Below are positions 1,907 through 63,051 of a stretch of 64,000 nt of DNA, piece by piece. This DNA is from an uncultured beta proteobacterium. GTDB lineage: Bacteria; Pseudomonadota; Gammaproteobacteria; Burkholderiales; Burkholderiaceae_C. The position numbers and the translations under genes are program-made. The DNA is taken from positions 3,844 to 67,843 of the forward strand of contig CAVPUD010000060.1 of assembly GCA_963708545.1 (NCBI GenBank), given 5' to 3'. The notes beneath the pieces are model-generated. The model was not told where the DNA came from and did no database searches. It saw only the letters and a program-made list of their open reading frames with translations. The number at the start of each line of letters is the position of its first letter. The first letter of the stretch is position 1.

Positions 1907-1960
1907 AAATTGCCTTTTTTCGCATATCCAGCAATCGTAAGAAGCTACTTATTTAGTAGT
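1907..1960 (+). repeat. 54-bp dispersed motif copy (intergenic, after purB)
   Basis: aaattgcct-tttttcgcatatccag-caatcgtaaga-a-gctac ttattta gtagt. Confidence 0.8.
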
Positions 1961-2003
1961 ATTCTGGCTGTCTGAAAAGGCCATCACTGCGCCGGCGGCA
2001 GGA

Positions 2004-2300
2004 TCAGCGTATGCCCCCGACATAGCGTGGCGTCTCGGGTGGCGCCGGCGGCGCTGGAGCCGGAGCCTGCGGTAACGCGGCGCCCGCGCCCATGGCGCCC
2101 ATGGCGCGCTCGAGCTTGTCGGCCCACTCGGCCAGTTCGGGCGCCTGGTCTTCGGCGGCGCGCTGGCGTGCAAAACGCACGATTTCGCGCGCATAGTCGG
2201 CATTGCAGGCCATCCATTCGGTGTCCGTCACGCGCCCGGTCTTGCGCCGCAGCAGCACATGCAGGTGCGCTGCGATGGCCAGTTTCTCGCTCTCCAGCAT
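2004..2300 (-). CDS. Small conserved hypothetical protein
   Basis: MLESEKLAIAAHLHVLLRRKTGRVTDTEWM...YVGGIR; typical codon usage; start set at ATG 2300. Confidence 0.75.
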   Translation of the reverse strand: MLESEKLAIAAHLHVLLRRKTGRVTDTEWMACNADYAREIVRFARQRAAEDQAPELAEWADKLERAMGAMGAGAALPQAPAPAPPAPPETPRYVGGIR

Positions 2301-2328
2301 GTTCCGCCCCCCTGTAGGCTGTGCGCCA

Positions 2329-3705
2329 TCAACCCAGCCGCTCACGCTGCTGCGCGATGTCCAGCCCCGTCAACTCGCTTTGCGCATCCACGCGCAAGCC
2401 GACCACCAGGCGCGTGATCCACAAGCACAGCGCGGTGCCGACCAGGCCGTACACCAGCACCGCCGCCACGCCCAGGGCCTGCGTGAGCACATCGCCACGC
2501 ACCCCGGAGACCACCGGATCGGCAAACACGCCCGTCAACAAGGAGCCGACGATGCCGCCCACGCCATGCACGCCGAACACGTCCAGCGAATCGTCCGCGC
2601 CCAGCAGGCGCTTGAGCCCCGTGGCACCCCAATAGCAGGCCACTCCCGCGATCAGCCCGATCAGCAGCGCCGAGCGCAAGGTGACGAAGCCGGCGGCAGG
2701 CGTGACCGCCACCAGCCCGGCCACCAGCCCCGAGCACAGGCCCAGCAGCGAGGGGCGCCCGCGCGCTATCCATTCGGCCAGCATCCAGGCCAGTGCGCCC
2801 GCGGCGGCCGCAAGGTGCGTCACGGCCATGGCCAGCCCGGCGCGCCCATCGGCGGCGATGGCCGAGCCGGCGTTGAACCCAAACCAGCCCACCCACAGCA
2901 GGCCCGCGCCCACCATGGTGAAGCCCAGGTTGTAGGGCTCGAACGGCTCGCGGCCGTAGCCTTGGCGTGGCCCCAAGATCCAGGCGCAGACCAGGCCCGC
3001 CACACCGGCGTTCACGTGCACCACCGTGCCGCCAGCAAAATCCAGCGCCCCAAGCCGCGCCAGCCAGCCGCCAGGCTCCCACACCCAGTGCGCCACCGGC
3101 ACGTAAACGCACAGCGACCACAGGCCCATGAACCACAACAGGGCGGAAAAGCGCATGCGCTCGACCAGCGCGCCCACGACCAGAGCGGCGGTGATGAGGG
3201 CAAAAGTCAGCTGGAACATGGCATAGACCGACTCGGGAATGTGCGGCGCAATATGGCTCACCGCGACCAGGCCTGCACCCTGCTGCAGGTCCAGCCCGGC
3301 AAAACCCAGGCGCTCCCCGCCGCCCAACCATGGGCTGCCCGGCGTGAAGGCCCACGAGTAGCCTGCGGCAAACCACAGCACACTCACCAGCGCGGCAATC
3401 GCCACCACGCTGGCCATCGTGTTGAGCACGTTCTTTTTGCGCACCATGCCGGCGTAAAACAGCGCGATGCCGGGTAAGGTCATCAGCAGCACCAGCGCCG
3501 TGGCGGTGATCATCCAGGCAGTGTCCCCGGCGCTGATGCTGCTTTGCGCCACGAGCGCAGGCGCAGTCAGCGCCGCCGGCGCGGCCGGGGCCGGCACCGG
3601 CGCGGCGCCGGTGCCGGGCGGTGTCTGGGCCAGGGCAGCGGTAGCAAGCCCGAGGATCAACAGCGCTGTGATTCCAAGCCATCGAAGCAAGGCTGCGGGC
3701 ATCAT
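2329..3705 (-). CDS. amt: Ammonium transporter (Amt family)
   Basis: GDTAWMITATALVLLMT, DFAGGTVVH, WFGFNAGS, DDSLDVFGVHG motifs; start set at the Met-Met 3705/3702 downstream of the sigma54 promoter. Confidence 0.95.
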   Translation of the reverse strand: MMPAALLRWLGITALLILGLATAALAQTPPGTGAAPVPAPAAPAALTAPALVAQSSISAGDTAWMITATALVLLMTLPGIALFYAGMVRKKNVLNTMASVVAIAALVSVLWFAAGYSWAFTPGSPWLGGGERLGFAGLDLQQGAGLVAVSHIAPHIPESVYAMFQLTFALITAALVVGALVERMRFSALLWFMGLWSLCVYVPVAHWVWEPGGWLARLGALDFAGGTVVHVNAGVAGLVCAWILGPRQGYGREPFEPYNLGFTMVGAGLLWVGWFGFNAGSAIAADGRAGLAMAVTHLAAAAGALAWMLAEWIARGRPSLLGLCSGLVAGLVAVTPAAGFVTLRSALLIGLIAGVACYWGATGLKRLLGADDSLDVFGVHGVGGIVGSLLTGVFADPVVSGVRGDVLTQALGVAAVLVYGLVGTALCLWITRLVVGLRVDAQSELTGLDIAQQRERLG

Positions 3706-3743
3706 GAACGCCTTTCTGTAAAGAGTGGTAACGAGTGACCCCT

Positions 3744-3759
3744 TGCACAAGGCGTGCCA
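3744..3759 (-). promoter_or_regulatory. Sigma54 (-24/-12) promoter of amt
   Basis: Minus strand TGGCACGCCTTGTGCA with exact GG-N10-GC spacing, about 40 bp upstream of the amt start. Confidence 0.8.
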
Positions 3760-3834
3760 ACGGGCCGGCGGCATGGAGCGCGGTGCTGCAGGCGCGCTGG
3801 GTTGCGGTGCGCCGCAGGGGCGGGAAATCCCCAA

Positions 3835-3851
3835 TGCACCAATGCAGTGAA
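3835..3851. promoter_or_regulatory. Putative NtrC-binding site
   Basis: TGCACC-AATGC-AGTGAA resembles TGCACC-N5-GGTGCA, about 80 bp upstream of the sigma54 promoter. Confidence 0.5.
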
Positions 3852-3997
3852 TGCGCTTACAGTCCCCATCACTCGAAAGCGCTGCCTGCGCCAAACGAGG
3901 GAGCCGAGGAGACACCCACAAGCACACAATCCTTTCCAAGCGCCCCATGAGGTGCACTTTTTCCAGCGTCGGTGATCCCGGCGCTTTTTTTTTGCCA

Positions 3998-4051
3998 AAA
4001 ATGCGGAAAAGTCCAGCTGCATCGTGCGTTGGATGCTCTTCAGTCGGTAGC
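3998..4051 (+). repeat. 54-bp dispersed motif copy (degenerate, upstream of TauE gene)
   Basis: aaaatgcgg-aaaagtccagctgcat-cgtgcgttgga-t-gctct tcagtcg gtagc; same spacing as other copies. Confidence 0.55.
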
Positions 4052-4076
4052 TTTTTGGGGCGGCGACAATACCTGC

Positions 4077-4835
4077 ATGGAATGGATTGCGATGGCGCTC
4101 GCCGCCCTGCTCGCGGGTTTTGTCGATGCCATCGTCGGTGGCGGAGGGCTGGTGCTGCTGCCGGCCCTGTTTGCGGCTTTTCCGCAGGCGGCTGCGGCGA
4201 CCCTGCTGGGCACGAACAAGGCCACCTCGGTGTGGGGCACGGCCATGGCCACCTGGAATTACAGCCGGCGCGTGCCGCTGCGCTGGAGCGCCATGCTGCC
4301 CGCCGCGGCAGCCGCGTTCCTGGCGGCGTGGGCTGGAGCCTGGGCTGTCACCTTGATCCCCGGAGATACGCTGCGCCGGCTGCTGCCCCTGGTATTGCTC
4401 GCCGTGCTGCTCTATACGCTCTCTAAAAAAGAGCTTGGAAGGTCGCATACACCTAGGTATTCAGGCAAAAATGAGGCTATTTTTGCGAGCCTGATCGGCG
4501 CGGGCGTCGGCTTTTACGATGGTTTTTTCGGGCCTGGGACGGGCAGCTTTTTCATCTTTTTGCTCGTGCGCGTACTCGGGTATGACTTTCTGAACGCCTC
4601 GGTGTCGGCCAAGCTGCTCAACTTTGCGAGCAATGTCGCCGCGATCCTGCTGTTTGCGAGCAAAGGCCACGTGTGGTGGCCACTCGCGCTCACGCTGGGG
4701 GCAGCCAACGTGCTGGGCAGCGTGCTGGGCACCCATCTGGCGCTGCGACACGGAGCCGGCTTCGTGCGCGGTATTTTCATCGCCGTGGTGGGCGTTTTGA
4801 TTTGCAAGACAGGGTGGGATGCTTTCCTGCGCTGA
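4077..4835 (+). CDS. Sulfite exporter TauE/SafE family membrane protein
   Basis: AGFVDAIVGGGGL, GFYDGFFGPGTGSF motifs; hydrophobic. Confidence 0.92.
   Translation: MEWIAMALAALLAGFVDAIVGGGGLVLLPALFAAFPQAAAATLLGTNKATSVWGTAMATWNYSRRVPLRWSAMLPAAAAAFLAAWAGAWAVTLIPGDTLRRLLPLVLLAVLLYTLSKKELGRSHTPRYSGKNEAIFASLIGAGVGFYDGFFGPGTGSFFIFLLVRVLGYDFLNASVSAKLLNFASNVAAILLFASKGHVWWPLALTLGAANVLGSVLGTHLALRHGAGFVRGIFIAVVGVLICKTGWDAFLR
4418..4471 (-). repeat. 54-bp dispersed motif copy inside TauE CDS
   Basis: Reverse complement tttttgcct-gaatacctaggtgtat-gcgaccttcca-a-gctct tttttag agagc; perfect 5-bp arms; run of rare codons. Confidence 0.65.
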
Positions 4836-4884: not shown

Positions 4885-4912
4885 GGCAATTTCAAGTCCG
4901 AAGTGCAACACC
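4885..4912 (+). mobile_element. Probable left inverted repeat of an IS30-family element
   Basis: GGCAATTTCAAGTCCGAAGTGCAACACC resembles IS1086-like IS30 ends (from memory) and precedes an IS30 transposase N-terminus once the MITE is removed. Confidence 0.55.
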
Positions 4913-4927
4913 ACCCTATCAGATAAA

Positions 4928-5164
4928 CCTAAATCCGGCAGTTGACCGCTGCATTTTTGTATGCAACTCTTTGATTTTTCGAATGATTTTTACGTTGCGA
5001 GACGCACCCATCGGGTCAGAGCGCTGCGCACCCGATCGCGCCGCCCTCGGGCACGCTGGCCGCGTTGCAAATCCTCGCCATGGCACCCGCCATGGCTGCG
5101 GTTTGCGCCTTGCCAGTGCACCCGATGACGACACGCTCGGGCGCGCTCAACTGCCGGATTTAGG
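4928..5164 (+). mobile_element. MITE copy 1 (237 bp)
   Basis: 18-bp TIR CCTAAATCCGGCAGTTGA / TCAACTGCCGGATTTAGG; flanks ATAAA / TTAAA (4 of 5 match); no transposase. Confidence 0.92.
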
Positions 5165-5177
5165 TTAAATTGCGCAG

Positions 5178-5476: not shown

Positions 5477-6338
5477 ACGTGGCGGCCTGCTGGCCATGCT
5501 GGCCCTGCTGATCGTGACCGTGGTCTGGGGCACGACCTTTCCGGCGATGAAGCTGCTGTCGGCGCAGCTCGACGCGCTGCAGATCATTTGGTTGCGCTTT
5601 GCCATCGCTTCGCTCGTGCTCGCGCCGCTGTGGCACAGCATGCGCGGCCCCGAGCGCGCGTGGGGCGGCCTGCTCGGGGCCTTGCTGTTCGTCGCGTTTT
5701 GGCTGCAGATCGAGGGGCTCGCGCGCACCAGCAGCAACCGCAACGCCTTCGTCACGGGGCTCAACGTGCTCGGGGTGCCGCTTTTGGCCATGCTGGTGCT
5801 GCGGCGCCGCTATGGCTGGCGTCTGTGGGCAGCCTGCGCCCTGGCCGGCGCGGGCATGGCACTGATGTTCCACGAGGACGCGCCCTGGAATTTCGGCGAC
5901 ACGCTCACGCTGGTGAGCGCGCTGTTTTATGCGCTCTACGTCCTCGCGCTCGAAGAGTGCGCGCGCCACACGGCGGCGCAGCCGCTGCGCGCCACGCGCA
6001 TGGCCACGGTGCAGGCGGGCGTGATGTGCGCTGCCGCGACGGCGTTGCTGCTCGCGCGCGGCAGCGGCCTGGGCTGGCTTGCGTCGCTCGGGCGCCTCGA
6101 CGCCACAAGCTGGGGTGCGCTGCTGTATCTCGGGCTTGTCGCCAGCGTGCTCGTCGTGATTTTGCAAGCCTGGGGGCAGCAGCGCGTCGATGCCGTGCGC
6201 AGTGCCATCGTGTACGGGCTCGAGCCGGTGTTCGCCGCGCTCGCCGCGTGGGCGCTGCTGGGCGAGCGGCTTGGCTGGACGGGCAGCGCGGGCGCGGCGC
6301 TGATCGTGGCTGCGCTGGTGCTGAGCCAGTTACCCTAA
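5466..6338 (+). CDS. DMT/EamA family transporter
   Basis: VVWGTTFPAMK, GDTLTL, AIVYGLEPVFAA; stop codon lies inside MITE copy 2. Confidence 0.92.
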   Translation: MRSERGGLLAMLALLIVTVVWGTTFPAMKLLSAQLDALQIIWLRFAIASLVLAPLWHSMRGPERAWGGLLGALLFVAFWLQIEGLARTSSNRNAFVTGLNVLGVPLLAMLVLRRRYGWRLWAACALAGAGMALMFHEDAPWNFGDTLTLVSALFYALYVLALEECARHTAAQPLRATRMATVQAGVMCAAATALLLARGSGLGWLASLGRLDATSWGALLYLGLVASVLVVILQAWGQQRVDAVRSAIVYGLEPVFAALAAWALLGERLGWTGSAGAALIVAALVLSQLP

Positions 6339-6570
6339 ATCCGGCAGTTGAGCGCGCCCGAGCGTGTCGTCATCGGGTGCACTGGCAAGGCGCAAACCGC
6401 AGCCATGGCGGGTGCCATGGCGAGGATTTGCAACGCGGCCAGCGTGCCCGAGGGCGGCGCGATCGGGTGCGCAGTGCTCTGACCCGATGGGGGCTTTTCG
6501 CAGAGTGAAAAATCATCGGAAAAATCAAAGAGTTGCATACAAAATGCAGCGGTCAATTGCCGGATTTAGG
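6334..6570 (-). mobile_element. MITE copy 2 (237 bp, reverse orientation)
   Basis: Same TIRs (one mismatch); perfect 5-bp TSD GTTAC at 6329-6333 and 6571-6575. Confidence 0.95.
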
Positions 6571-6603
6571 GTTACAGTCGCCGCCCTCGCGCAAGTCCTG
6601 ATC

Positions 6604-19182: not shown

Positions 19183-19821
19183 ATGCTCCACTACCGCACC
19201 ATCCCCGTCACGCCTTTCCAGCAGAACTGCTCCATCGTCTGGTGCGATGCCACGCACGAGGCGGCGCTCATTGACCCGGGCGGTGACATCGACGTGTTGC
19301 TCGCCGAGGCTCGGCGTCTGGGCGTCGAGCCCACGCAAATTTGGCTCACGCACGCGCACATAGACCACGCCGGCGGTGCGGGCGAGCTCGCGCAGCGCCT
19401 GGGCATCCCCATCATCGGCCCGCATCCGGGCGACCAGTTCTGGATCGACGGCCTGGCGCAGCAAAGCGCGGCCTTCGGCTTTGCGCCCGCCGTGCCGTTC
19501 ACGCCCACGCGCTGGCTGCACGACGGCGACAGCGTGCAGGTCGGCCACGAAACGCTGCACGTGCGCCACACTCCGGGCCACACGCCCGGCCACGTGGTGT
19601 TCCACGCGCCGCAGATCGACCGCGCCTTCGTCGGCGACGTGCTGTTCGCGGGCAGCATCGGGCGCACGGACTTTCCGGGCGGCAACCACCAGCAGCTCAT
19701 CGACAGCATCGTCAGGCGTCTGTGGCCCATGGGCGACCAGACGGTGTTCATCCCCGGCCACGGGCCCGAGAGCACCTTTGGGCGTGAGCGGCGCAGCAAC
19801 CCGTTCGTGGGCGGCACTTGA
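19183..19821 (+). CDS. MBL-fold metallo-hydrolase (YcbL/glyoxalase II-like)
   Basis: THAHIDHAGG, HTPGHTPGH, GDVLFAGSIGRTD. Confidence 0.93.
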   Translation: MLHYRTIPVTPFQQNCSIVWCDATHEAALIDPGGDIDVLLAEARRLGVEPTQIWLTHAHIDHAGGAGELAQRLGIPIIGPHPGDQFWIDGLAQQSAAFGFAPAVPFTPTRWLHDGDSVQVGHETLHVRHTPGHTPGHVVFHAPQIDRAFVGDVLFAGSIGRTDFPGGNHQQLIDSIVRRLWPMGDQTVFIPGHGPESTFGRERRSNPFVGGT

Positions 19822-19845
19822 GCTACGCGCCGAGGATTTTGGATA

Positions 19846-19899
19846 AAAAGTGCCATTAGCCCAGGCGGGACAAGCGCAAGCAGCTATCGTTTGGAGAGT
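19846..19899 (+). repeat. 54-bp dispersed motif copy overlapping the mpl 3' end
   Basis: aaaagtgcc-attagcccaggcggga-caagcgcaagc-a-gctat cgtttgg agagt. Confidence 0.85.
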
Positions 19900-21299
19900 T
19901 CTTCGAGCAGCTTGGCGTGCACGCCGCCAAAGCCGCCGTTGCTCATGCACACGATGTGGTCGCCCGCCTGCGCGGCCTGTACGATCTGGCGCACCAGGGT
20001 GGCGATGTCGGGCGCGGTCTGCGCGCGTGGGCCCAGCGGTGCGAGCGCCTCGCGCGCGTCCCAGTCCAGGCCGCCGGTGTGGCAAAAGGCCAGGTCGGCC
20101 GGCTCCAGGGCCCAGGGCAGCTGCGCCTTCATGGTGCCGAGCTTCATGGTGTTGCTGCGCGGCTCGAACACGGCCAGGATGCGTGCCTGCGACTGGCCCG
20201 CGGCATCGAGCTGGCGGCGTAGGCCGTCGAGCGTGGTGCGTATCGCCGTGGGGTGGTGCGCGAAGTCGTCGTACACCGTGACTTCGCCGCCCGCCAGCGC
20301 CACGCGCCCGCGCAGCTCCATGCGGCGCCGCACGTTCTGAAAGCCCGCGAGCGCCTGCGCCGCCAGCGCCACCGGCACGCCCACGTGCTGCGCCGCCGCG
20401 ATGGCCGCGAGCGCGTTGAGCTGGTTGTGCACACCCGTGAGCGACCAGACCACGCGCCCCTGCGGTGCGCCTTGCACGAGCACGTCGAAGGCCTGCGGCG
20501 CGCCCGCGGCGCAAAAATCGCTCACCGCGGCGCCAAAGCTGCGCACCTCGCTCCAGCAGCCCTGGTGCAGCACGCGCGTGAGGCTCTCCTCGAGGCCGTT
20601 GACCACCACGCGCCCGGCAGCCGGCACGGTGCGCAGCAGGTGGTGGAACTGGCGCTCGATCGCGGCCAGGTCGTCGAAGATGTCGGCGTGGTCGAATTCG
20701 AGGTTGTTGAGCACCGCCGTGCGCGGGCGGTAGTGCACGAACTTGCTGCGCTTGTCGAAAAAGGCCGTGTCGTACTCGTCGGCCTCGATCACGAACAGCG
20801 GCCGCGGCTGCCCCGGCGCCTGCGCGCCCAGGCGCGCCGAAATGCCGAAATTCAGCGGCACGCCACCCACCAGAAAGCCCGGCGTGAGCCCTGCGCTTTG
20901 CAAAATCCAGGCGAGCATGGAGGTCGTGGTGGTCTTGCCGTGCGTGCCCGCCACGGCCAGCACGTGGCGGCCTTGCAGCACGTGCTCGGCCAGCCACTGC
21001 GGGCCGCTGGTGTAGGGCAGGCCCGCATCGAGGATGGCTTCCATCAAGGGAAATTTGGGCGCTCCGTCGGCCAAGCGCGCGCGGCTGACCACGTTGCCCA
21101 CCACGAACATGTCGGGCGCGAGCGCGAGCTGGTCGGCGTCAAAGCCTTCGATCAGCTCGATGCCCAGCGCGCGCAGCTGCTCGCTCATGGGCGGATAGAC
21201 GCCCGCGTCGCAGCCCGTGACCTTGTGTCCGGCCTCGCGCGCTAGCGCGGCCACGCCGCCCATGAAAGTGCCGCAAATGCCCAGAATGTGGATATGCAT
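19884..21299 (-). CDS. mpl: Murein peptide ligase
   Basis: MHIHILGICGTFMGG, AGTHGKTTT, EADEYDTAFFDKRSKF, DDFAHHPTAI. Confidence 0.97.
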   Translation of the reverse strand: MHIHILGICGTFMGGVAALAREAGHKVTGCDAGVYPPMSEQLRALGIELIEGFDADQLALAPDMFVVGNVVSRARLADGAPKFPLMEAILDAGLPYTSGPQWLAEHVLQGRHVLAVAGTHGKTTTTSMLAWILQSAGLTPGFLVGGVPLNFGISARLGAQAPGQPRPLFVIEADEYDTAFFDKRSKFVHYRPRTAVLNNLEFDHADIFDDLAAIERQFHHLLRTVPAAGRVVVNGLEESLTRVLHQGCWSEVRSFGAAVSDFCAAGAPQAFDVLVQGAPQGRVVWSLTGVHNQLNALAAIAAAQHVGVPVALAAQALAGFQNVRRRMELRGRVALAGGEVTVYDDFAHHPTAIRTTLDGLRRQLDAAGQSQARILAVFEPRSNTMKLGTMKAQLPWALEPADLAFCHTGGLDWDAREALAPLGPRAQTAPDIATLVRQIVQAAQAGDHIVCMSNGGFGGVHAKLLEELSKR

Positions 21300-21324
21300 G
21301 GCGGGGCATTGTAATCTTGGAGCC

Positions 21325-21378
21325 AAAATGGCCGTTTGTGCAGATGTATCAAGCGCAAGAAGCTACCAAAAAAGTAGC
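21325..21378 (+). repeat. 54-bp dispersed motif copy upstream of mpl
   Basis: aaaatggcc-gtttgtgcagatgtat-caagcgcaaga-a-gctac caaaaaa gtagc. Confidence 0.88.
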
Positions 21379-21474
21379 TTTTCCGTAGCCTTTGCGGGGC
21401 TGCGGGCCGGGTATGGCGCAGGGCCGCGGGTTCGCGCCACAATGCGGGCTGCACATTCCTACCGCTGCCCTGCC

Positions 21475-23265: not shown

Positions 23266-23273
23266 GGCGGCGC

Positions 23274-23631
23274 ATGTTCCAAAAGATACTGATCGCCAAC
23301 CGCGGCGGACATGCCGCAGGCATGGCGAAGCAAATTGCCCTGGCACGCGCAGCGTGCGGGCGATGAGCCGCGGGAGAAACCATGTTCAAAAAAATACTGA
23401 TCGCCAACCGCGGCGGACATGCCGCAGGCATGGCGAAGCAAATTGCCCTGGCACGCGTAGCGTGCGGGCGATGAGCCGCGGGAGAAACCATGTTCAAAAA
23501 AATACTGATCGCCAACCGCGGCGGACATGCCGCAGGCATGGCGAAGCAAATTGCCCTGGCACGCGTAGCGTGCGGGCGATGAGCCGCGGGAGAAACCATG
23601 TTCAAAAAAATACTGATCGCCAACCGCGGCG
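23274..23631 (+). repeat. Tandem 108-bp repeat (3 units plus the accC 5' end), each unit a 30-aa mini-ORF
   Basis: ATG starts at 23274, 23382, 23490 and 23598 (period 108); mini-ORFs 23274-23366, 23382-23474, 23490-23582 read MF(Q/K)[22 protein letters not shown](A/V)ACGR*. Confidence 0.97.
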
Positions 23632-28180: not shown

Positions 28181-28558
28181 TCAAGGCTTGCTGCCCGTCG
28201 GGAAGGGCCAAGCTGCCTGGGGATTGAGAGTGGTCTGGGCGGGAACGGATGCCTTGGCTGCCTTCTTCGCAGGTGCGGCAGCTTTCTTCGCAGGTGCAGC
28301 AGCCTTCTTCGCAGGTGCAGCAGCCTTCTTCGCAGGTGCAGCAGCCTTCTTCGCAGGTGCAGCAGCCTTCTTCGCAGGTGCAGCAGCCTTCTTCGCAGGT
28401 GCGGCAGCTTTCTTCGCAGGCGCGGCAGCTTTCTTCGCAGGTGCAGCAGCCTTCTTCGCAGGTGCGGCAGCTTTCTTCGCAGGCGCGGCAGCTTTCTTCG
28501 CAGGCGCTTCGGTCTTCATGGCCTGGGATGCGGCGGGTTTTTTTGCAGTTGCCATCAT
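28181..28558 (-). CDS. Histone H1-like nucleoid protein with PAKKAAA repeats
   Basis: 11 full plus 1 partial PAKKAAA repeat; C-terminal TLNPQAAWPFPTGSKP. Confidence 0.9.
   Translation of the reverse strand: MMATAKKPAASQAMKTEAPAKKAAAPAKKAAAPAKKAAAPAKKAAAPAKKAAAPAKKAAAPAKKAAAPAKKAAAPAKKAAAPAKKAAAPAKKAAAPAKKAAKASVPAQTTLNPQAAWPFPTGSKP
28256..28504 (-). repeat. 21-bp coding tandem repeat (about 12 units)
   Basis: (GCAGCAGCCTTCTTCGCAGGT)n with minor variants. Confidence 0.95.
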
Positions 28559-28747
28559 GTTCTCCTTGGGTCGATGTGTTGTGCGCGCCGCACTCCTACG
28601 GTGAGCGGGCAGCAGTTAGAACCTGTTCTCAGGCGTGGAGGCCGATCCCTCCCGCATGAACACGAAAAACGCCCCACCTGGTGCAACACAAGACAATGCA
28701 GTGATGGCAGGTGCGATAGTCATGGCTTTTGTCTGCACCCGACGGGA

Positions 28748-29944
28748 TCAATCCCAGGAGAGTGCGCCTCCAGACTGGTATTCGATGACCCGCGTTTCGA
28801 AGAAATTGCGCTCCTTCTTGAGGTCGATCATTTCGCTCATCCAGGGGAAGGGGTTTTCTTCATTGGGGAAAAGGGTCTCGAGGCCGATCTGCGTGGCGCG
28901 GCGGTTGGCGATGTAGCGCAGATAGCCCTTGAACATGGAGGCGTTCAAGCCCAGCACGCCACGCGGCATGGTGTCTTCGGCGTAGCGGTATTCGAGCTCG
29001 ACGGCTTTGAGGAAGAGTTCCTTGAGCTCGGCTTTGAACGCCGGCGTCCACAGGTGCGGGTTTTCGAGCTTGAGCTGGTTGATCAGGTCGATGCCGAAGT
29101 TGCAGTGCATGGACTCGTCGCGCAGGATGTACTGGTACTGCTCTGCCGCGCCGGTCATCTTGTTTTGCCGGCCCAGTGCGAGGATCTGCGTGAAGCCGAC
29201 GTAGAAGAACAGCCCTTCCATCAGGCAGGCGAAGACGATCAGGCTCTTGAGCAGGGTCTGGTCGGCCTCGGGCGTGCCGGTGTGAAAGTGCGGGTCCATG
29301 ATCGCGTCGATGAACGGGATCAGGAACTCGTCCTTGGCGCGGATCGCGGGAACTTCATGGTAGGCGTTGAAGATTTCGCCCTCGTCGAGCCCCAGCGACT
29401 CGACGATGTACTGGTAGGCGTGCGTGTGGATGGCTTCTTCGAAGGCCTGGCGCAGCAGGAACTGGCGGCATTCGGGCGCCGTGATGTGGCGGTAGGTGCC
29501 GAGCACGATGTTGTTGGCGGCCAGGCTGTCGGCGGTGACGAAGAAGCCCAGGTTGCGCTTGACGATGCGGCGCTCGTCCTCGGTCAGGCCGTGCGGGTCT
29601 TTCCAGAGCGCGATGTCGCGCGTCATGTTGACCTCTTGCGGCATCCAGTGGTTGGCGCAGGTGGCGAGGTATTTTTCCCAGGCCCATTTGTATTTGAAGG
29701 GCACGAGCTGGTTGACGTCGGTCTGGCCGTTGATGATGCGCTTGTCGGCGGCGTTGACGCGGCGCTCGGACACTTTTTGCACCGGGGCCTGGAAAGAGGG
29801 GGTAGCGAGCGCGGCCACCGTTATTTCCGAGGCGCGGGGTGCAAGAAACGACTGCGTGCCGGGCATAGTACCGCCGGAAGGCAGTGCAATGCCCGGTGCG
29901 CCAGATGCGGCGGTGGGGGTGGTTTCTTCGTCCCAATTCAGCAT
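28748..29944 (-). CDS. nrdB: Ribonucleotide reductase class Ia beta subunit
   Basis: [34 protein letters not shown]; start MLNWDEE. Confidence 0.96.
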
Positions 29945-37121: not shown

Positions 37122-37343
37122 TCACGCAGTGCGCGGCAGGTGTGCCGCCGAGCAATAAAACTTTCCGTCCTGCACCAGGGCTTCGGAGCGCGGCAGGTGC
37201 ACGCCGCAGTGCGCGCAGGCCACCATGCTTTCAGGGGCCGCGCGCCGAGGCGGGACAGACTTGGAGCGGGAGGCAGGCGCCTGTTGGCTGCGCCACCAGG
37301 CCGCGCCCACAGCCACGACGATGAGCACGAGCAGGTACTTCAT
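37122..37343 (-). CDS. PP0621-family small protein
   Basis: TM helix then MVACAHCGVHLPRSEAL...YCSAAH. Confidence 0.88.
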   Translation of the reverse strand: MKYLLVLIVVAVGAAWWRSQQAPASRSKSVPPRRAAPESMVACAHCGVHLPRSEALVQDGKFYCSAAHLPRTA

Positions 37344-37493
37344 CCTAAATCCGGCAGTTGAGCGCGCCCAAGCGTGTCGTCATCGGGTGCGCAGCGCTCT
37401 GACCCGATGGGTGCGTCTCGCAGAGTGAAAAATCATTCAAAGAATCAAAGCGTTGCATACAAAAAAATACAGCGGTCAACTGCCGGATTTAGG
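37344..37493 (-). mobile_element. MITE copy 3 (150 bp, internally deleted)
   Basis: Same TIRs; 90-bp deletion between ATCGGGTGC direct repeats; flanks TTCAT / TTTAT. Confidence 0.92.
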
Positions 37494-37494
37494 T

Positions 37495-38292
37495 TTATAC
37501 GCTGCGGTGTAAAACGACTTCGAGCACGAAGCGCGAGCCCACGTAAGCCAGCAGCAGCAGCGCGGCGCCCGCATACAGCACACGCACGGCGCTGCGCCCG
37601 CGCCAGCCAAAGCGTGCGCGCCCGAGCAGCAGCACGGCAAAGGTGAGCCAGGACAGCAGCGAGAACACCGTCTTGTGGTCCCAGCGCCAGGCGCGCCCGT
37701 ACAACTGCTCGCCAAACAGCATGCCCGCGAGCAGCGTTGCCGTGAGCAGCGCGAAGCCCGCCGCGACGAAGCGAAACATCAGGCGCTCGAGCGTGAGCAG
37801 CGGCATGCCACTGTCTGGGTCTTGGCCCTGGCGGATGCGGCGCTCCGCGCGCGTCATGAGCCAGGCGTGCACCACTGCGGCGGCAAACAGGCCATAGCAG
37901 GCGATGCCCAGCGCCAGGTGCAGCGGCAGCCAGGCGGATGCCGTGGCATGCAGTGGCTGGCCCGGAAACAGCTGTGCGAGCAGCAAGCTCAGCGCCGCCA
38001 AGAGCGCCAGCATCCAGCGCGCGCGCAGTTGCGGGAACAGCTGGCGCTCGATGGCGTACACCGTGAGCGCAAGCCAGGCCGTCATCGACAGCGCCGGCGC
38101 AAAGCCAAAGCGCGGCGCCTCGCCCCACAGCCCCCAGCCGAGCGCCGCCGCGTGCAGCAGCCAGGCCGGGCGCAAGGCGCGCCGCGTCCAGCCCTCGCGC
38201 AGCCGTGCGCCCGCGAGCGCCGGAGCGGCGTAGGCCAGCGCCGCCGCGAGCGACAGCAGCCAGCCGATCGGAGAGGCACTCGGTAAAATCAT
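37495..38292 (-). CDS. CcsA/YpjD-like inner membrane protein (cytochrome c assembly family)
   Basis: PLHLALGIACYGLF, WRWDHKTVFS; divergent from ffh. Confidence 0.88.
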   Translation of the reverse strand: MILPSASPIGWLLSLAAALAYAAPALAGARLREGWTRRALRPAWLLHAAALGWGLWGEAPRFGFAPALSMTAWLALTVYAIERQLFPQLRARWMLALLAALSLLLAQLFPGQPLHATASAWLPLHLALGIACYGLFAAAVVHAWLMTRAERRIRQGQDPDSGMPLLTLERLMFRFVAAGFALLTATLLAGMLFGEQLYGRAWRWDHKTVFSLLSWLTFAVLLLGRARFGWRGRSAVRVLYAGAALLLLAYVGSRFVLEVVLHRSV

Positions 38293-38419: not shown

Positions 38420-39796
38420 ATGGCCTCCGCCCTCACTGACAAACTCTCGCGCCTCGTCAAAGAAATGCGCGGCCAGGCCCGCATCACCGAATCCAACGTG
38501 CAGGACATGCTGCGCGAAGTGCGCATGGCCCTGCTCGAAGCCGACGTGGCCCTGCCCGTGGTGCGCGACTTCATTGCGCGCGTCAAGGAAAAGGCGCTGG
38601 GGCAGGAGGTGCTGGGCAGCCTCAAGCCCGGCCAGGCGCTGGTGGGCATCGTGCACCGCGAGCTCGCCGCCACCATGGGCGAGGGCGTGTCCGACCTGAA
38701 CCTGGCCACGCAGCCGCCTGCCGTGATCCTCATGGCCGGCCTGCAAGGCGCGGGCAAGACGACGACCACGGCCAAAATCGCCAAGCACCTGATCGAAAAA
38801 CGCAAGAAAAAAGTGCTCACCGTCTCGGGCGACGTGTACCGGCCTGCAGCCATAGAGCAGCTCAAGACCGTGACGCGCCAGGCCGGGGCCGAGTGGTTTC
38901 CGAGTTCGCCCGAGCAAAAGCCGCTCGAGATCGCGCGCGCCGCGCTCGACTACGCCAAAAAGCACTACTTCGACGTGCTGCTGGTCGACACCGCGGGGCG
39001 CCTGGCGATCGACGAGGCGCTGATGCAGGAGATCAAGGAACTGCACGCGGCGCTGCAGCCGGTCGAAACCTTGTTCGTCGTCGATGCCATGCAGGGGCAG
39101 GACGCCATCAACACCGCGCGCGCCTTCAAGGAGGCGCTGCCGCTCACGGGCATCGTGCTCACCAAACTCGACGGCGACGCGCGCGGCGGTGCGGCGCTGT
39201 CGGTGCGCCAGATCACGGGCGCGCCGATCAAGTTCGCGGGCGTCTCGGAAAAAATCGACGGCCTCGAAGTGTTCGACGCCGAACGCCACGCGGGCCGCGT
39301 GCTGGGCATGGGCGACATCGTCGCGCTGGTCGAGCAGGTCACGGCCAACGTCGATCTGGATGCCGCGCAAAAACTCGCCGCCAAGGTCAAGAGCGGCAAT
39401 GGGTTCGACCTCAACGACTTCCTCGCGCAGATTCAGCAGATGAAGCAGATGGGCGGGCTCTCCAGCCTCATGGACAAGCTGCCCACGCAACTGAGCGCGC
39501 AGGCGGGCAAGGTCGATATGGGCAAGGTCGAAAAAGACATACGCCGCAAGGAAGGCATCATCCAGAGCATGACGCCGCTCGAGCGCCGCAAGCCCGACGT
39601 CATCAAGGCCTCACGCAAAAAGCGCATCGCCCAGGGCGCGGGCGTGCAGGTGCAGGAGGTCAACCGCCTGCTCAAGGAATTTGAGCAGATGCAGGAAATG
39701 ATGAAAAAAATGAAGGGCGGCGGCCTGATGAAGATGATCAAGAAAATGGGCGGTATGAAAGGCCTGGGCGGCGGCATGCCCAAGATGCCGTTCTGA
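38420..39796 (+). CDS. ffh: Signal recognition particle protein
   Basis: GLQGAGKTTT, DTAGR, TKLDGDARGG, Met-rich C-terminus. Confidence 0.98.
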   Translation: MASALTDKLSRLVKEMRGQARITESNVQDMLREVRMALLEADVALPVVRDFIARVKEKALGQEVLGSLKPGQALVGIVHRELAATMGEGVSDLNLATQPPAVILMAGLQGAGKTTTTAKIAKHLIEKRKKKVLTVSGDVYRPAAIEQLKTVTRQAGAEWFPSSPEQKPLEIARAALDYAKKHYFDVLLVDTAGRLAIDEALMQEIKELHAALQPVETLFVVDAMQGQDAINTARAFKEALPLTGIVLTKLDGDARGGAALSVRQITGAPIKFAGVSEKIDGLEVFDAERHAGRVLGMGDIVALVEQVTANVDLDAAQKLAAKVKSGNGFDLNDFLAQIQQMKQMGGLSSLMDKLPTQLSAQAGKVDMGKVEKDIRRKEGIIQSMTPLERRKPDVIKASRKKRIAQGAGVQVQEVNRLLKEFEQMQEMMKKMKGGGLMKMIKKMGGMKGLGGGMPKMPF

Positions 39797-39817
39797 CGGC
39801 TTCTGAAATTTCAAGCC

Positions 39818-39871
39818 ATTTTGGCCTCTAGCGCACATCCAGAAAGCGCTTTCAGCTATTAATACAGCAGC
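39818..39871 (+). repeat. 54-bp dispersed motif copy between convergent ffh and lysE-like genes
   Basis: attttggcc-tctagcgcacatccag-aaagcgctttc-a-gctat taataca gcagc. Confidence 0.88.
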
Positions 39872-39889
39872 AAAAGCCGGGTGGAACAC

Positions 39890-45814: not shown

Positions 45815-45913
45815 GACCCCAGATTGTCCATGAGGCAGCATGAAAGAGCGGTGGGATACGGGCGGACAGAGTGGCGCGGCGCATGCTGCAAACCCGGCTG
45901 GGCCTAGCATGAT

Positions 45914-46150
45914 CCTAAATCCGGCAGTTGACCGCTACATTTTGTATGCAACTCTTTGATTCTTCGAATGATTTTTCACTCTGCGAGACTCACCCATCGG
46001 GTCAGAGCGCTGCGCGCCCGATCGCGCCGCCCTCGGGCACGCAGGCCGCGTTGCAAATCCTCGCCATGGCGCCCGCCATGGCTGCGGTTTGCGCCTTGCC
46101 AGTGCACCCGATGACGACACGCTCGGGCGCGCTCAACTGCCGGATTTAGG
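45914..46150 (+). mobile_element. MITE copy 4 (237 bp)
   Basis: Perfect TIRs; perfect TSD ATGAT at 45909-45913 and 46151-46155. Confidence 0.95.
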
Positions 46151-46320
46151 ATGATAAACAGGCCTCGTCCCCTGGCCGGGCAGACCGTGCCGCTGCCGTG
46201 ACGGCGGCCAGCGCGCACGCTACGCCGGCAATGATCGGATAGGATGCAAGCTGGGCCGGCGCGCAATGCCACGGCGCTCTGGTTCCCCCCTCTTTCCAAC
46301 GACTTCAGGAGACGCCCCCC

Positions 46321-47327: not shown

Positions 47328-48125
47328 CTATTGCACCAGCCCGAGCGCGCCGCCGTCTATGCGCAGGTTCTGGCCGTTGATGAAGGCGGCGCGCGTGCTC
47401 GCGACGAAGCACACCAGGTCGGCCACCTCCTCGCGCGTGGCGATGCGGCCCACGGGGTTGGGAAAGCGCTGCGCGACGATGCGCGCCTCTATGCTCGCCC
47501 AGTCGCCCTCCCCGTCCTCCCAGCCCGCGCGGCGCGCCTTGGCGTGGAAGGCGGCCTCGACTTCGGGCGTGCGGATGTAGCCCGGCGACACCGTGTTCAC
47601 GGTGATGCCGGTGTTCGCAAGCTCCTGCGACAGCGTCACGGCGATGCTCGCGAGCGCGCTCTTGGCCGCGTAGTAGGCCGGGCGCAGCGGATTGGGCTGG
47701 GTCGAACCTATGGTGCCGAGCTGGATCACGCGCCCCCAGCCGCGGCTGCGCATCTGCGGCGTGAGCAGGCGGATCAGGCGCACCGCGCCCAGCAGGTTCT
47801 TCTGGTACATGTCGAGCCAGACGGCGGTCTCGGCCTCATCCCAGCGCGCGTCCGCGGCCGTGCCGTAGTTGTTCACCAGGATGTCCACGCGCCCCGCGGC
47901 AGCCAGCGCCTGCTGCGCCACCTGCGCGGCGCCCGCGTCGCTGCACAGATCGCCCCAGACGCTGTGCTGCACGCCCTGCACGCGCAGAGGCTCGGCGCTG
48001 CCTTGCGCAAAGCCATGCGCGATCACGGTCGCGCCTTCTTCGGCGAGGCGCTGCGCGATCACGCTGCCGGTGCCGCGCTCGCTGCCCGTGACCAGCGCCA
48101 CCTTGCCCTGGAGCCCGAGGTCCAT
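47328..48125 (-). CDS. SDR family oxidoreductase
   Basis: TGSERGTG, DILVNNYG, YYAAK, VNTVSPG. Confidence 0.92.
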   Translation of the reverse strand: MDLGLQGKVALVTGSERGTGSVIAQRLAEEGATVIAHGFAQGSAEPLRVQGVQHSVWGDLCSDAGAAQVAQQALAAAGRVDILVNNYGTAADARWDEAETAVWLDMYQKNLLGAVRLIRLLTPQMRSRGWGRVIQLGTIGSTQPNPLRPAYYAAKSALASIAVTLSQELANTGITVNTVSPGYIRTPEVEAAFHAKARRAGWEDGEGDWASIEARIVAQRFPNPVGRIATREEVADLVCFVASTRAAFINGQNLRIDGGALGLVQ

Positions 48126-48167
48126 GCTTGTCTCCTGTGCCGTGCGCTTGCGGCGCCCACCAAAAAT

Positions 48168-48221
48168 GCTATGTTAAATATAGCTTCTTATGCTTGATGG
48201 ACGGGCACAAATGCCCATTTT
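48168..48221 (-). repeat. 54-bp dispersed motif copy (intergenic)
   Basis: Reverse complement aaaatgggc-atttgtgcccgtccat-caagcataaga-a-gctat atttaac atagc. Confidence 0.88.
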
Positions 48222-48240
48222 TGCCTTTGAAGTCTATAGT

Positions 48241-49020
48241 TCAGCGGTTCTTGAACTCGGGCTTGCGCTTGTTCAGGAAGGCGTCCATGCCTTCCTTCTG
48301 GTCTTCGGTGGCGAACAGGCCGTGGAACAGGCGGCGCTCGAACATCAGGCCGTCGCTGAGCGAGCTTTCAAACGCGCGGTTCACGGATTCCTTGGCGGCC
48401 ATGGCGGCGACTTGCGAGAGGTCGGCGACGATGAGTGCCGCGCCCAGCGCTTCTTCCATCAGCTTGTCCAGCGGCACGACGCGGCTCACCAAGCCTGCGC
48501 GCTCGGCCTCGGTGGCATCCATCATGCGGCCCGTGAGCACCATGTCCATGGTCTTGGACTTGCCCACGGCGCGCGGCAGGCGCTGCGTGCCGCCCGCACC
48601 GGGAATCACGCCGAGCTTGATCTCGGGCTGGCCGAACTTGGCGTTGTCGGCCGCGATGATGAAGTCGCACATCATCGCGAGCTCGCAGCCGCCGCCGAGC
48701 GCAAAGCCGCTCACCGCGCCGATCACGGGCTTGCGCACGCTGCGGATGGTTTCCCAGTTGCGTGTGATGAAGTCGCCCTTGTAGGCATCGACGAAGCTGT
48801 ATTTGGCCATGCTGGGGATGTCGGCGCCCGCGGCAAAGGCTTTTTCGCTGCCCGTGAGGATGATGCAGCCGATTTTGTCGTCCGCGTCGAAGGCCTTGAG
48901 CGCGTGGCCCAGCTCGTCCATGAGCTGGTCGCTGAGCGCGTTGAGCTGTTTGGGGCGGTTCAGCGCGATGATGCCGACCTTGTCGGCCTCGGTGCGCACG
49001 AGGAGGGTTTCGTAGTTCAT
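48241..49020 (-). CDS. Enoyl-CoA hydratase
   Basis: [35 protein letters not shown]. Confidence 0.95.
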
Positions 49021-57390: not shown

Positions 57391-58437
<1,047 letters not shown>

Positions 58438-60751: not shown

Positions 60752-60796
60752 TTGACGGTACAGATGGCCAAAGGATAATGTAGTGTCCAGCACTAC
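60752..60796 (+). promoter_or_regulatory. Sigma70 promoter and operator of the phd-vapC module
   Basis: TTGACG-N16-GATAAT followed by inverted repeat GTAGTG-N5-CACTAC. Confidence 0.6.
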
Positions 60797-60808
60797 CTAG
60801 AGCGTCGC

Positions 60809-61045
60809 ATGAAAACCATCTCTGCCGCCGATGCCAATCGCCACTTCTCCAGCGTGCTGCGCGATGTCGCCACCGGCGAGGTCGTCACGATATTGTCGCG
60901 TGGCAAAGCCGTGGCAACCATTGCGCCCGCGCGCGCTGGCAGCGCAGAACGCGAAGCCGCCAAACGCAACTTGCTCACACGCTTGCGCCAGCAAAAACCC
61001 TGTGGCACGCGCGACTGGACGCGCGAGGAACTGTACGAGGGCTGA
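60809..61045 (+). CDS. Phd/YefM-family antitoxin
   Basis: MKTISAADANRHFSSVLRDVATGEVVTILSRGKAVATI...WTREELY. Confidence 0.9.
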   Translation: MKTISAADANRHFSSVLRDVATGEVVTILSRGKAVATIAPARAGSAEREAAKRNLLTRLRQQKPCGTRDWTREELYEG

Positions 61046-61048
61046 TCC

Positions 61049-61510
61049 GTGCGGCTCGCTCTTGACACCAACATCCTGACCTATGCCGAAGGGCTGGGTG
61101 ATGAGCCGCGTTGCGCCATGGCGGTGCAACTCGTCGAGCAACTGCCCAGCGATGCCGTGGTGCTCCCCGCACAGGCGCTGGGAGAGCTGGCGCGCGTGCT
61201 GACGGGCAAAGCCAGGCGCTCTAACGCGCAGGCGCGCGAGGCCGTACTGGCTTGGGCCGACAGCTTTACGGTAGCGGACTCCACTTGGTTCGCCTTCCAG
61301 TCCGCGCTGGATTTGACCGTCGACCACCAGCTACCGCTGTGGGACGCCTTGATTCTCGCGGTCGCGGCCGAGAACCACTGCCGCTTGCTGCTGTCGGAAG
61401 ACTTCCAGAATGGCTTCACGTGGCGCGGCGTGACCGTCGTCAACCCGTTTGTCCTGCCGCATGCGCCGCTGCTGACGGGCTTGATGCGCAGCGCGAGCCG
61501 CAGTGGCTAG
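61049..61510 (+). CDS. PIN-domain (VapC-like) toxin
   Basis: LDTNIL, LGE, WDALI..A, LLSEDF acidic PIN residues; GTG start. Confidence 0.92.
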   Translation: MRLALDTNILTYAEGLGDEPRCAMAVQLVEQLPSDAVVLPAQALGELARVLTGKARRSNAQAREAVLAWADSFTVADSTWFAFQSALDLTVDHQLPLWDALILAVAAENHCRLLLSEDFQNGFTWRGVTVVNPFVLPHAPLLTGLMRSASRSG

Positions 61511-61824
61511 CCCTTGCTGCCCGCGCCAGAAATCTTTGTTGCAAACTGGGCCTCGATGTCCATCGCGCCGTGCACGATGCGCACGATACGCACCAGGCCC
61601 GCCTCCTCGTAGAAAACCACGAGATAGTTGCCATGAGCGCAGGAACGCATGCCCTTGCCGAGTTCCGGCCGCGGTTTATAGGCTTGGGGCGACTGGGTCA
61701 GCTTGCGGCACTGCGCGCGCAACTCGCGTACGAAGCTGGCCGCTCGGCGGGGGTTGTCCCTGGCGATGTAATCACCGATGGCCTCCAAGTCTTCAATGGC
61801 CCGGGGCAAAAATTCCAGCCGCAT
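61507..61824 (-). CDS. ParE/RelE-family toxin
   Basis: AIEDLEAIGDYIARDNPRRA, RPELGKGMRS, YLVVFYE, IVRIVHGAMDI. Confidence 0.92.
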   Translation of the reverse strand: MRLEFLPRAIEDLEAIGDYIARDNPRRAASFVRELRAQCRKLTQSPQAYKPRPELGKGMRSCAHGNYLVVFYEEAGLVRIVRIVHGAMDIEAQFATKISGAGSKG

Positions 61825-62087
61825 CAGACTGCTTTCTCAGCCATCGCGAGATACTTCGCTTCGAGGCGATCAAACACCTCCTCTTCCGAAAGACAAGGCC
61901 CGCTCGCCAAACCCACCGCAACGGCCTCGCGCAAGGCCTGCAGCTTGGCGACCTGTTCGGCCTCGCGCTCTTCGAGCAGGCGCAGCCCGGCACGCACCAC
62001 CTCGCTGACGTTGTTGAAGCGGCCTGATTCGACCTGCTGCCGGACAAAGGCTTCGAAATGGGGGCTGAGCGCCACACTGGTAGGCAT
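61824..62087 (-). CDS. ParD-family (RHH) antitoxin
   Basis: VRQQVESGRFNNVSEVVRAGLRLLEERE; TGATG overlap with parE. Confidence 0.92.
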   Translation of the reverse strand: MPTSVALSPHFEAFVRQQVESGRFNNVSEVVRAGLRLLEEREAEQVAKLQALREAVAVGLASGPCLSEEEVFDRLEAKYLAMAEKAV

Positions 62088-62104
62088 CGCTGTTTCTCCT
62101 GCAA

Positions 62105-62123
62105 TTTAATAACCATTATTAAA
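62105..62123. promoter_or_regulatory. Perfect inverted repeat upstream of parD (putative operator)
   Basis: TTTAATAA-CCA-TTATTAAA, 17 bp upstream of the parD start. Confidence 0.65.
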
Positions 62124-62238
62124 GGCAGTCCTCTGGCCGCTTGTCAAGATACTGCGCTTTGCCTCGCGCTCGCAGCATCCGCGCTCTGCCACCCTGCGCT
62201 GGGCCGTCGTGCCCTTGTCGTGCCCTACAGTGCGCCCC

Positions 62239-63051
62239 ATGCCCGACAAGACCAAGCCCATTTCGGCGACCACAGGCCAAGTCCCCGCCATGCTGCTCGC
62301 CGCAGGCCGCGGCGAGCGCATGCGCCCTTTGACCGACCACACGCCCAAGCCCCTGCTGCGCGTGCAGGGGCGCCCGCTGCTCGAATGGCACCTGCGCGCG
62401 CTCGCCGCGGCGGGCGTCACGCGGGCCGTCATCAACACCGCCTGGCTGGGGGAGCAGATCAGCGCGTATTTTTCAGATCATTTTGCCATCCAAGGCAATA
62501 CTGACGGTCGCAAGCAGCTATCGATTTCATACTCACACGAGGGCCGCGACTTCGGCGCCGCGCTCGAAACGGCGGGTGGCATCGCGCGCGCGCTGCCGCT
62601 GCTGGGGCCGGTGTTCTGGCTCGCGGCGGGCGACGTGTTCGCGCCCGACATCGCCTTTGCCGCCGCCGAGGTGCAGCGCTTTGCCGCGAGCGACTACCTG
62701 GCGCACCTGTGGCTGGTGCCCAACCCTGCGCACCATCCGCGCGGCGACTTCGGCCTCTCGCCCGAGGGCCTTGCGCGCAACCTGCCGCCGCAAGACCCCG
62801 CGCCGTGCTACACCTACAGCACCATCGCCCTGCTGCGCGCCGAGCTCTTCACGCCGCCCTGGTGCGACATCCCGCCCGGAAACCCCGCCGGCCTGGCCGC
62901 GCCCCTGGCCCCCCTGCTGCGCCGCGCCATGGACCAGCACCGCGTGAGCGCCGCGCTCTACACCGGCCGCTGGACCGACGTGGGCACGCCCGAGCGGCTC
63001 GCGGCGCTGAATGAGCTGGCTGACAGCGGCACCAAAACAGCGGCCCCATAG
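62239..63051 (+). CDS. murU: Nucleotidyltransferase (MurU-like N-acetylmuramate alpha-1-phosphate uridylyltransferase)
   Basis: AMLLAAGRGERMRPLTDHTPKPLL, LETAGGI, WTDVGTPERL. Confidence 0.85.
   Translation: MPDKTKPISATTGQVPAMLLAAGRGERMRPLTDHTPKPLLRVQGRPLLEWHLRALAAAGVTRAVINTAWLGEQISAYFSDHFAIQGNTDGRKQLSISYSHEGRDFGAALETAGGIARALPLLGPVFWLAAGDVFAPDIAFAAAEVQRFAASDYLAHLWLVPNPAHHPRGDFGLSPEGLARNLPPQDPAPCYTYSTIALLRAELFTPPWCDIPPGNPAGLAAPLAPLLRRAMDQHRVSAALYTGRWTDVGTPERLAALNELADSGTKTAAP
62480..62533 (+). repeat. 54-bp dispersed motif copy inside murU
   Basis: attttgcca-tccaaggcaatactga-cggtcgcaagc-a-gctat cgatttc atact. Confidence 0.8.

Follow-up and report, generated by a model that had tools for sequence, protein, structure and literature searches.

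Here we show that a motif of roughly 70 bp, dispersed through a window of 64,000 nucleotides from an uncultured beta proteobacterium of the Comamonadaceae and through the rest of its genome, is a DNA-level recognition signal with rigid geometry, which was written in place and is held at specified positions in intergenic spacers and genes alike. The window is the whole stretch C60:3844-67843 (contig CAVPUD010000060.1) of assembly GCA_963708545.1, which we call G000 and which comprises 2.98 Mb in 167 contigs. We put the probability that the motif is an in-place-written DNA signal read by a protein at about three in four. How the signal is kept in the genome is a more tentative matter: our candidate, at somewhat less than even odds, would be a transmission bias like that of DNA uptake signals, with the uptake machinery as the reader. 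If this is true, a long and seemingly unnamed DNA signal shapes the intergenic DNA and the proteins of a large, well-studied bacterial family. An earlier note, made from the letters of the window alone, had listed 13 copies of a 54-bp element and knew of no function assigned to it. We found no description of the motif in Rfam or in open-access literature text (motif strings, Comamonadaceae repeats), and the ~70-bp signal is apparently undescribed so far.

We built an nhmmer profile from the 7 best of the 13 listed window copies and iterated it over the whole assembly with a cut-off of E<=1e-3, which resulted in ~290 matches after convergence. The nhmmer alignments contained no indel in any of the 290 copies; the repeat family with fixed spacing that had been proposed from the window is thus real and extends genome-wide, and the same indel-free copies support the idea of a DNA-level signal with rigid geometry. 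The proposed 54-bp frame was correct in being fixed and fell short in extent, as it is only the core of a unit of ~70 nt. In a column profile of 287 extended copies, information climbs at -12 and drops at +58 relative to the start of that frame, and outside these sharp bounds both flanks are ordinary 67% G+C sequence. The consensus is AAwTTTnrAGyC-AAATTGGCCTCTAGCGCTTATGCATCAAGCGCwAGCAGCTATCAATTTAGTAGCAAT, with information spread over ~45 columns of the 54-70-bp unit, conserved blocks every 10-15 bp (approximately one helical turn) and A/T tracts at both ends. Strong cores, most of them with a matching left half, numbered 402 in the genome compared to 26 in a shuffled genome, a frequency well above that control. 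The copies are nevertheless far from uniform: the highest identity between any two of the 287 was 55/70 (79%), with one contig-end duplicate excepted. This duplicate is an identical 70-nt copy present on C56:~303-372 and C83:~29538-29607, and it probably stems from an overlap of contig ends in the assembly.

The copies were placed relative to genes by means of gene calls from a rough codon-bias method made for this analysis. By these calls, ~200 copies are intergenic and 75/290 lie deep inside open reading frames (ORFs). The presence of copies in coding DNA had been claimed from the window, and while the examples given there scored mostly at chance level, true intragenic copies do occur elsewhere in the genome. 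Intergenic copies are enriched in convergent spacers (45/190) and depleted in divergent ones (16/278), and the edges of copies lie a median of 8-11 nt from a stop codon, with strong enrichment just 3' of stops. Orientation relative to genes is random, as seen in tandem contexts, where 58 copies point one way and 77 the other. Within genes, copies occupy four of the six reading frames, lie where residues are poorly conserved and rely on codons ending in A/T, which are rare in this genome. Their hosts are housekeeping genes, among them argF, trpE, purK, purL, thiL, cobQ, nadE, mutS and dapF; the motif would thereby explain odd AT-rich, rare-codon patches in such genes.

The evidence that copies were written in place comes from genes in which the copy-free state can be read from relatives. 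For 34 intragenic copies, we fetched the orthologous segments from two motif-free genera (G006 and G007) with chimeric protein queries, and 26 of these were alignable across the copy. Net length change compared to the motif-free orthologues ranged from -8 to +29 amino acids with a mode of 0, and 14/26 were within +/-3 amino acids; none of the 26 showed the change of +21 to +25 amino acids expected from an insertion of 69-72 nt. For example, among ArgF orthologues from 20 genomes, the segment with the copy is only 3 codons longer than in copy-free genomes, and the ancestral residues Y-Q-x-F are visible through the copy. PurK aligns without gaps across its copy to the Burkholderia structure sequence PDB 4e4t. 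The change is 0 or -1 amino acid in PurK, NadE and MutS and +6 in TrpE, and net gains of 18-29 amino acids occur in some linkers, those of CobQ, acetyltransferase E2 and a WaaA-like gene.

We then compared nucleotide identity to the motif-free orthologue by column class, using 10 independent intragenic copies with <=3 gapped residues and a null in which any other copy was placed at the site. Identity was 67.6% in the flanks (for which there is no null), 51.9% at low-information columns (null 28.7%, p 1e-12), 40.1% at middle columns (null 32.0%, p 0.008) and 31.8% at high-information columns (null 26.6%, p 0.04). Taken per copy, identity was higher at low-information than at high-information columns (Wilcoxon p 0.004). 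Earlier bases are kept at unspecified columns and replaced at specified ones, and therefore these copies reflect overprinting by point substitution rather than insertion or the pasting in of a donor copy. These data show that point substitutions wrote the length-neutral intragenic copies over existing sequence.

It is quite unlikely that the motif is instead an old, inactive, non-autonomous mobile element (REP-, MITE- or RPE-like, as discussed below) that was inserted long ago and has been partly reshaped. The linker gains of 18-29 amino acids would suit such an element, yet length changes peak at 0 and never approach +23 amino acids, and ancestral bases are kept at unspecified columns while the specified columns are constrained at present. 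Sharp borders and AT-rich ends are also what an element would leave, as are the unit-like co-occurrence of the two motif halves and the hundreds of copies near gene ends; however, neither terminal inverted repeats (TIR) nor a target duplication is conserved in the column profile, as the earlier note had observed for the window, and recent copying was rejected since no copies are near-identical. We compared G000 with 1.19 Mb of its sister species G001, a stretch that holds 122 copies, 87 of them at an orthologous site in G000, in search of sites filled in one genome and empty in the other. Mobile insertion was rejected on this ground as well, with no clean filled/empty polymorphism found: no clean empty site turned up opposite any of the 122 copies in G001, or opposite those copies of G000 that have flanks mapping to the first 400 kb of G001. 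Without TIR, target duplication or filled and empty sites, the motif is not a MITE, a conclusion already drawn from the window. An element would further be favored by two accessory islets of G001 that are flanked by direct copies, although indel boundaries in general are not clearly enriched for copies, and the sole RAYT-like gene of G000 has a different inverted repeat at its sides and occurs in non-carriers too.

These two islets (G001:C1:190028-193482 and 313227-314306, loci L064 and L070) each lie between two direct motif copies. The L064 islet, of 3.3 kb, encodes a large methyltransferase-like protein, and the L070 islet, of 0.94 kb, carries a HicB-like antitoxin; in G000 there is no copy at the L064 site and one hybrid copy at the L070 site. 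The idea that copies serve as recombination junctions of islets was dropped after a systematic indel catalogue, in which 5/64 boundaries lay near a copy compared to ~2 expected.

Three known repeat families were compared with the motif. Repetitive extragenic palindromes (REP) and REPINs with their REP-associated tyrosine transposases (RAYT), including the GTAG-tagged REPs (PMC3116915, PMC3733652), are similarly short, mainly extragenic and high in copy number, with palindromic parts, a GTAG-like end and a position past stop codons. Unlike in these families, compensatory change does not maintain the palindromes of the motif, intragenic copies are length-neutral, and clusters of near-identical copies from recent amplification are absent. 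The single RAYT-like Y1-transposase gene of G000 (C36:12654-13391, outside the window) has inverted GGGGTCAGATTCCAATT repeats on either side, which differ from the motif, and the nearest motif copy is 3.5 kb off. One such gene is found in most genomes of the family, in carriers and non-carriers, including 6 motif-free genera. A REP/RAYT origin was rejected because this gene has another flanking repeat and occurs in non-carriers and because the stem of the motif is not maintained. Rickettsia palindromic elements (RPE), reported by Ogata et al. in 2000, are said to add a peptide segment by insertion. The motif resembles them in consisting of old, degenerate repeats in frame inside housekeeping genes; it differs in that its modal length change is 0 and ancestral sequence is visible at unspecified positions. 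Finally, the beta-proteobacterial repeat element BRE (Hot et al. 2011) measures ~90 bp, has 69% G+C, often forms tandem arrays and occurs in 1-29 copies per genome (PMC3110155). It too was reported in Comamonadaceae genomes, sometimes within coding sequence (PMC3110155). In contrast, the motif has ~70 nt, ~40-49% G+C (37-49% in the window copies), an arrangement as single dispersed units rather than arrays, and ~300 copies, and identity with BRE was rejected on length, G+C, arrangement and copy number.

Once written, the specified positions are maintained. Between G000 and G001, divergence over all copies increased from 11.4% at high-information columns through 19.5% at middle ones to 23.0% at low-information ones, and the gradient was similar for intergenic copies only (11.6%, 21.9% and 26.0%, respectively). 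In the first sample, divergence was negatively correlated with column information (Spearman rho -0.56, p 5e-7). The specified columns thus diverge half as fast as the others between sister species, in agreement with the view, first put forward from the window, that selection keeps the motif. At 4-fold sites within intragenic copies, 17% (20/117) had diverged at high-information columns versus 29% (27/92) at low-information columns, with 15% at flanking 4-fold sites. Copies also persist at the same site across genera, both in a spacer and in argF. In an alignment of orthologous intergenic regions, the spacer copy, at position 21314 of the window, recurs at its site in G001-G003 as well as in G005, a member of another genus, with possible decayed remnants in G008 and G009. 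In argF of G010, maintenance seems to have been lost, and GC-rich codons have returned to the patch by drift.

The consensus holds two hairpin-capable palindromes, and the earlier note had reported covariation between the arms of one of them. We found no such covariation, and the claim stemmed from a small sample. Across 287 copies, both palindromes show as many Watson-Crick pairs as column frequencies alone predict (for pair 41-51, 126 versus 119 expected), and in alignment A1, tested against 500 column shuffles, 71.8% of cells were paired compared to 72.6% in the shuffles, with 456/500 shuffles reaching the observed value and no excess of double changes. Mutual information is highest for columns next to each other rather than for partners across the arms. 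Searching the whole window against Rfam gave no match at gathering score, and a search with one copy at E<=10 gave only chance-level matches. With arm covariation absent, a cruciform or RNA structure, as the note had suggested, is therefore without support, and both were rejected on mutual information, Watson-Crick counts, paired-cell counts and Rfam. We accordingly see close to a negligible chance that the motif acts as a structured RNA or single-stranded DNA element, whether a terminator, an mRNA stabiliser or a small RNA. The palindromes themselves and the copies just past stop codons and inside operons speak for it; the lack of compensatory change in 100-287 copies largely refutes it, and copies stand in both orientations to genes and within coding sequence in four frames.

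If neither transposition nor structure accounts for the motif, its layout bears on what might read it. Copies occur at a density of one per 8.6-10.2 kb and are split almost evenly between strands (140 + / 150 -), without the strand bias whose absence had been noted in the window. Neighboring copies are on the same strand in 52% of cases, and a replication-polarity test detected no polarity relative to neighboring copies or to the local majority gene direction. Spacing between copies is approximately random (coefficient of variation 0.89-0.92) and not regular. We infer a reader that is a protein or complex contacting ~55-70 bp, which would suit conserved blocks that recur every 10-15 bp between A/T tracts.

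Such a reader might be architectural or topological, as the earlier note proposed: a nucleoid-associated protein, gyrase or a domain-boundary factor that would wrap the ~70 bp, with the sites kept by ordinary purifying selection. We consider this possible and on the unlikely side. The fixed length, the blocks spaced by roughly a helical turn and bounded by A/T tracts, the absence of covariation and the independence of orientation are all compatible with such a site, and so are the constraint on specified columns, the conservation of sites across genera and a frequency of one per 8-10 kb. The spacing, which is near-random and not regular, speaks against it. The genes are harder to accommodate. 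Selection per site among ~300 sites should be weak, yet purK, nadE, mutS and argF have been rewritten with rare codons and changed residues despite nearby intergenic DNA. No candidate protein was identified.

A second kind of reader would be a nuclease, repair or defence system that recognizes the motif as a mark of self and spares or processes its own DNA, following a logic like that of Chi. The density of Chi in E. coli is within about 2-fold of that of the motif, and a taxon-restricted signal written over genes would be in keeping with a mark of self. Unlike Chi, however, the motif has no polarity, for which reason we rejected both KOPS and Chi, in accordance with the first reading of the window; its length also exceeds by far that of any such mark known, and no associated gene was found. 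A self-mark is very unlikely.

We return to the tentative reading that an uptake-like transmission bias keeps the signal. Known uptake signals have cores of 9-12 bp (~30 bp with flanks) and occur at ~1 per kb. Like the uptake signal sequence (USS) of Pasteurellaceae and the DNA uptake sequence (DUS) of Neisseriaceae, the motif exists in hundreds of copies of one oriented, strand-neutral sequence (~290 here), is overprinted on intergenic and coding DNA without insertion, and lies at poorly conserved residues where it is intragenic. As with these signals, it is frequent just 3' of genes and commoner in convergent than in divergent spacers, its positions are maintained while the remainder drifts, and it is common to related genera, perhaps with small lineage differences. 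USS and DUS behave alike in coding regions according to Findlay and Redfield (PMC2817400), and dialects of uptake signals have been described (PMC3630211). Uptake-signal bias is the sole established process known to overprint a single motif in place on spacers and genes throughout a genome (PMC2817400, PMC3630211). Natural transformation is documented for Acidovorax temperans, A. facilis and Verminephrobacter, and Acidovorax was transformed by conspecific DNA only (PMC4212676).

Point substitutions at ~25-45 specified positions create the motif in place, with the intervening positions keeping their prior sequence. By the proposed mechanism, competent cells would take up DNA with a good copy more readily, and alleles that improve a copy would then spread via transformation and recombination despite a small cost to the host protein. 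An uptake bias needs no benefit per site and therefore fits copies in essential genes that come at a cost; it likewise predicts low similarity between copies. In-place writing in genes and the low copy-to-copy similarity somewhat favor an uptake-like bias over a nucleoid or topology protein. The hypothesis is testable in culturable, naturally transformable strains, in which control of uptake can be set against reading by a chromosomal protein.

Several observations weigh against our interpretation. The motif is 5-6x longer than the known signals (54-70 bp versus a 9-12-bp core) and ~10x sparser (one per 8-10 kb versus ~1 per kb). Its halves co-occur almost all-or-none, in contrast to USS and DUS, and gradual accumulation does not obviously predict this. 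The test of in-place writing rests on 10 copies picked for good alignment, while ~60% of the aligned intragenic copies have length changes, up to +29 amino acids in linkers, so some copies may arise with added DNA. The constraint is modest, at ~2-fold. Finally, the competence gene comEC is nearly universal in carriers and non-carriers and thus does not discriminate between them; we rejected it as a marker of carriers for this reason.

To describe its distribution, we searched related genomes for the motif. It was present in 4/4 genomes of the window's genus and, in a first sample, in 7/16 genera of the family, whereas 0/12 further families from the same order had it. When the sample was widened to 121 genera, each represented by one genome, 33/121 had a match at E<=1e-8, and ~22 of these had many copies. 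An exact-core scan of named genomes found the motif in Acidovorax, Comamonas (including C. testosteroni), Ottowia, Extensimonas, Simplicispira, Paenacidovorax, Alicycliphilus and Giesbergeria, and the note's mention of similar sequence in other Comamonadaceae was right. The consensus is nearly identical in Acidovorax, Ottowia and Extensimonas, and its left half differs somewhat in Comamonas, though the loci were seeded on the exact core, which biases comparison of the core. Water, soil, plants and wastewater commonly harbor members of the family such as Acidovorax, Comamonas and Ottowia. Among heavy carriers, G009 had the lowest best motif scores. The comEC gene of this genome (C1:1836740-1837544) is read in three frames, and a pseudogene or an assembly error is possible. 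Separately, the comEC gene of G000 itself holds a weak motif copy (C153:45415-45484).

The motif also occurs beyond chromosomes. A first-rate copy is held by a class 1 integron cassette located between dfrA12 and aadA2 (L267:3499-3563 in pCTX-M3, NC_004464.2:66697-66761; 50.1 bits, E 1e-14), as scored by R1, a sequence-only covariance model that we built from 100 copies. We take this cassette to be gcuF/orfF. In total, 1,750 plasmid records match the motif consensus. The "DUF1010 domain-containing protein" annotated in the cassette reads across the motif copy, and positions 4-21 of Pfam PF06231 match the frame-0 translation of the motif consensus. Judged by these sequence matches, DUF1010 may not be a real protein family; it appears to be partly a translation of the motif, which would also explain other spurious small-ORF families. 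The cassette copy suggests that the gcuF cassette DNA was derived from a Comamonadaceae chromosome, and the motif could be used to trace mobile DNA of this kind to a Comamonadaceae source. A further step, which we hold more loosely than the uptake bias itself, would be to see in the motif a DNA-uptake signal, the first one beyond Neisseriaceae and Pasteurellaceae. It would then be a 70-bp composite that the competence machinery of Comamonadaceae reads, kept by a bias strong enough to rewrite stretches of essential genes, and it would put a taxonomic watermark on exported DNA such as the gcuF cassette of clinical class 1 integrons.

Within the window, R1 run without filters identified 6 members, and the original list of 13 copies was thus right for these 6 and wrong for the other 7. 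Four of the members are intergenic on the forward strand or nearly so. The copy at 1895..1964 (+) lies in a convergent intergenic region and starts 1 base past the stop codon of gene 515-1894 (R1 43.1 bits, E 1.7e-12; nhmmer 28 bits). That at 19834..19902 (+) stands between gene 19183-19821(+) and gene 19884-21299(-), covering the last codons and the stop of the minus-strand gene (R1 48.2 bits, E 4.6e-14). The persistent spacer copy described above spans 21314..21382 (+) in a divergent intergenic region (R1 55.2 bits), and the copy at 39805..39874 (+) is found in a convergent intergenic region, 9 nt past the stop of gene 38420-39796 (R1 55.2 bits, E 2.9e-16). On the minus strand, the copy at 48164..48229 (-) fills the spacer of the tandem minus-strand genes 47328-48125 and 48241-49020 (R1 41.3 bits). 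A weaker copy at 62469..62531 (+) lies inside called gene 62230-63051(+) (R1 21.7 bits, E 8.7e-6; nhmmer E 0.0014 over model positions 30-52). Among the remaining listed copies, those at 3998, 4418, 14261, 51701 and 58747 scored at chance level with R1 (2.5-6 bits, E 0.65-9), and those at 32394 and 36894 received no R1 score at all.

The window also contains other repeats. A second, unrelated family of ~240 nt occurs at 4912-5177, 6311-6593, 37339-37509 and 45909-46154; its copies are 85-98% identical, occur in both orientations and have the ends CCTAAATCCGGCAGTTGA, and the family looks MITE-like. In addition, there are two tandem arrays, one at 28194-28571 with 13 units of 21 nt and one at 23273-23631 with 3 units of 108 nt that are 98% identical, both probably inside coding sequence.

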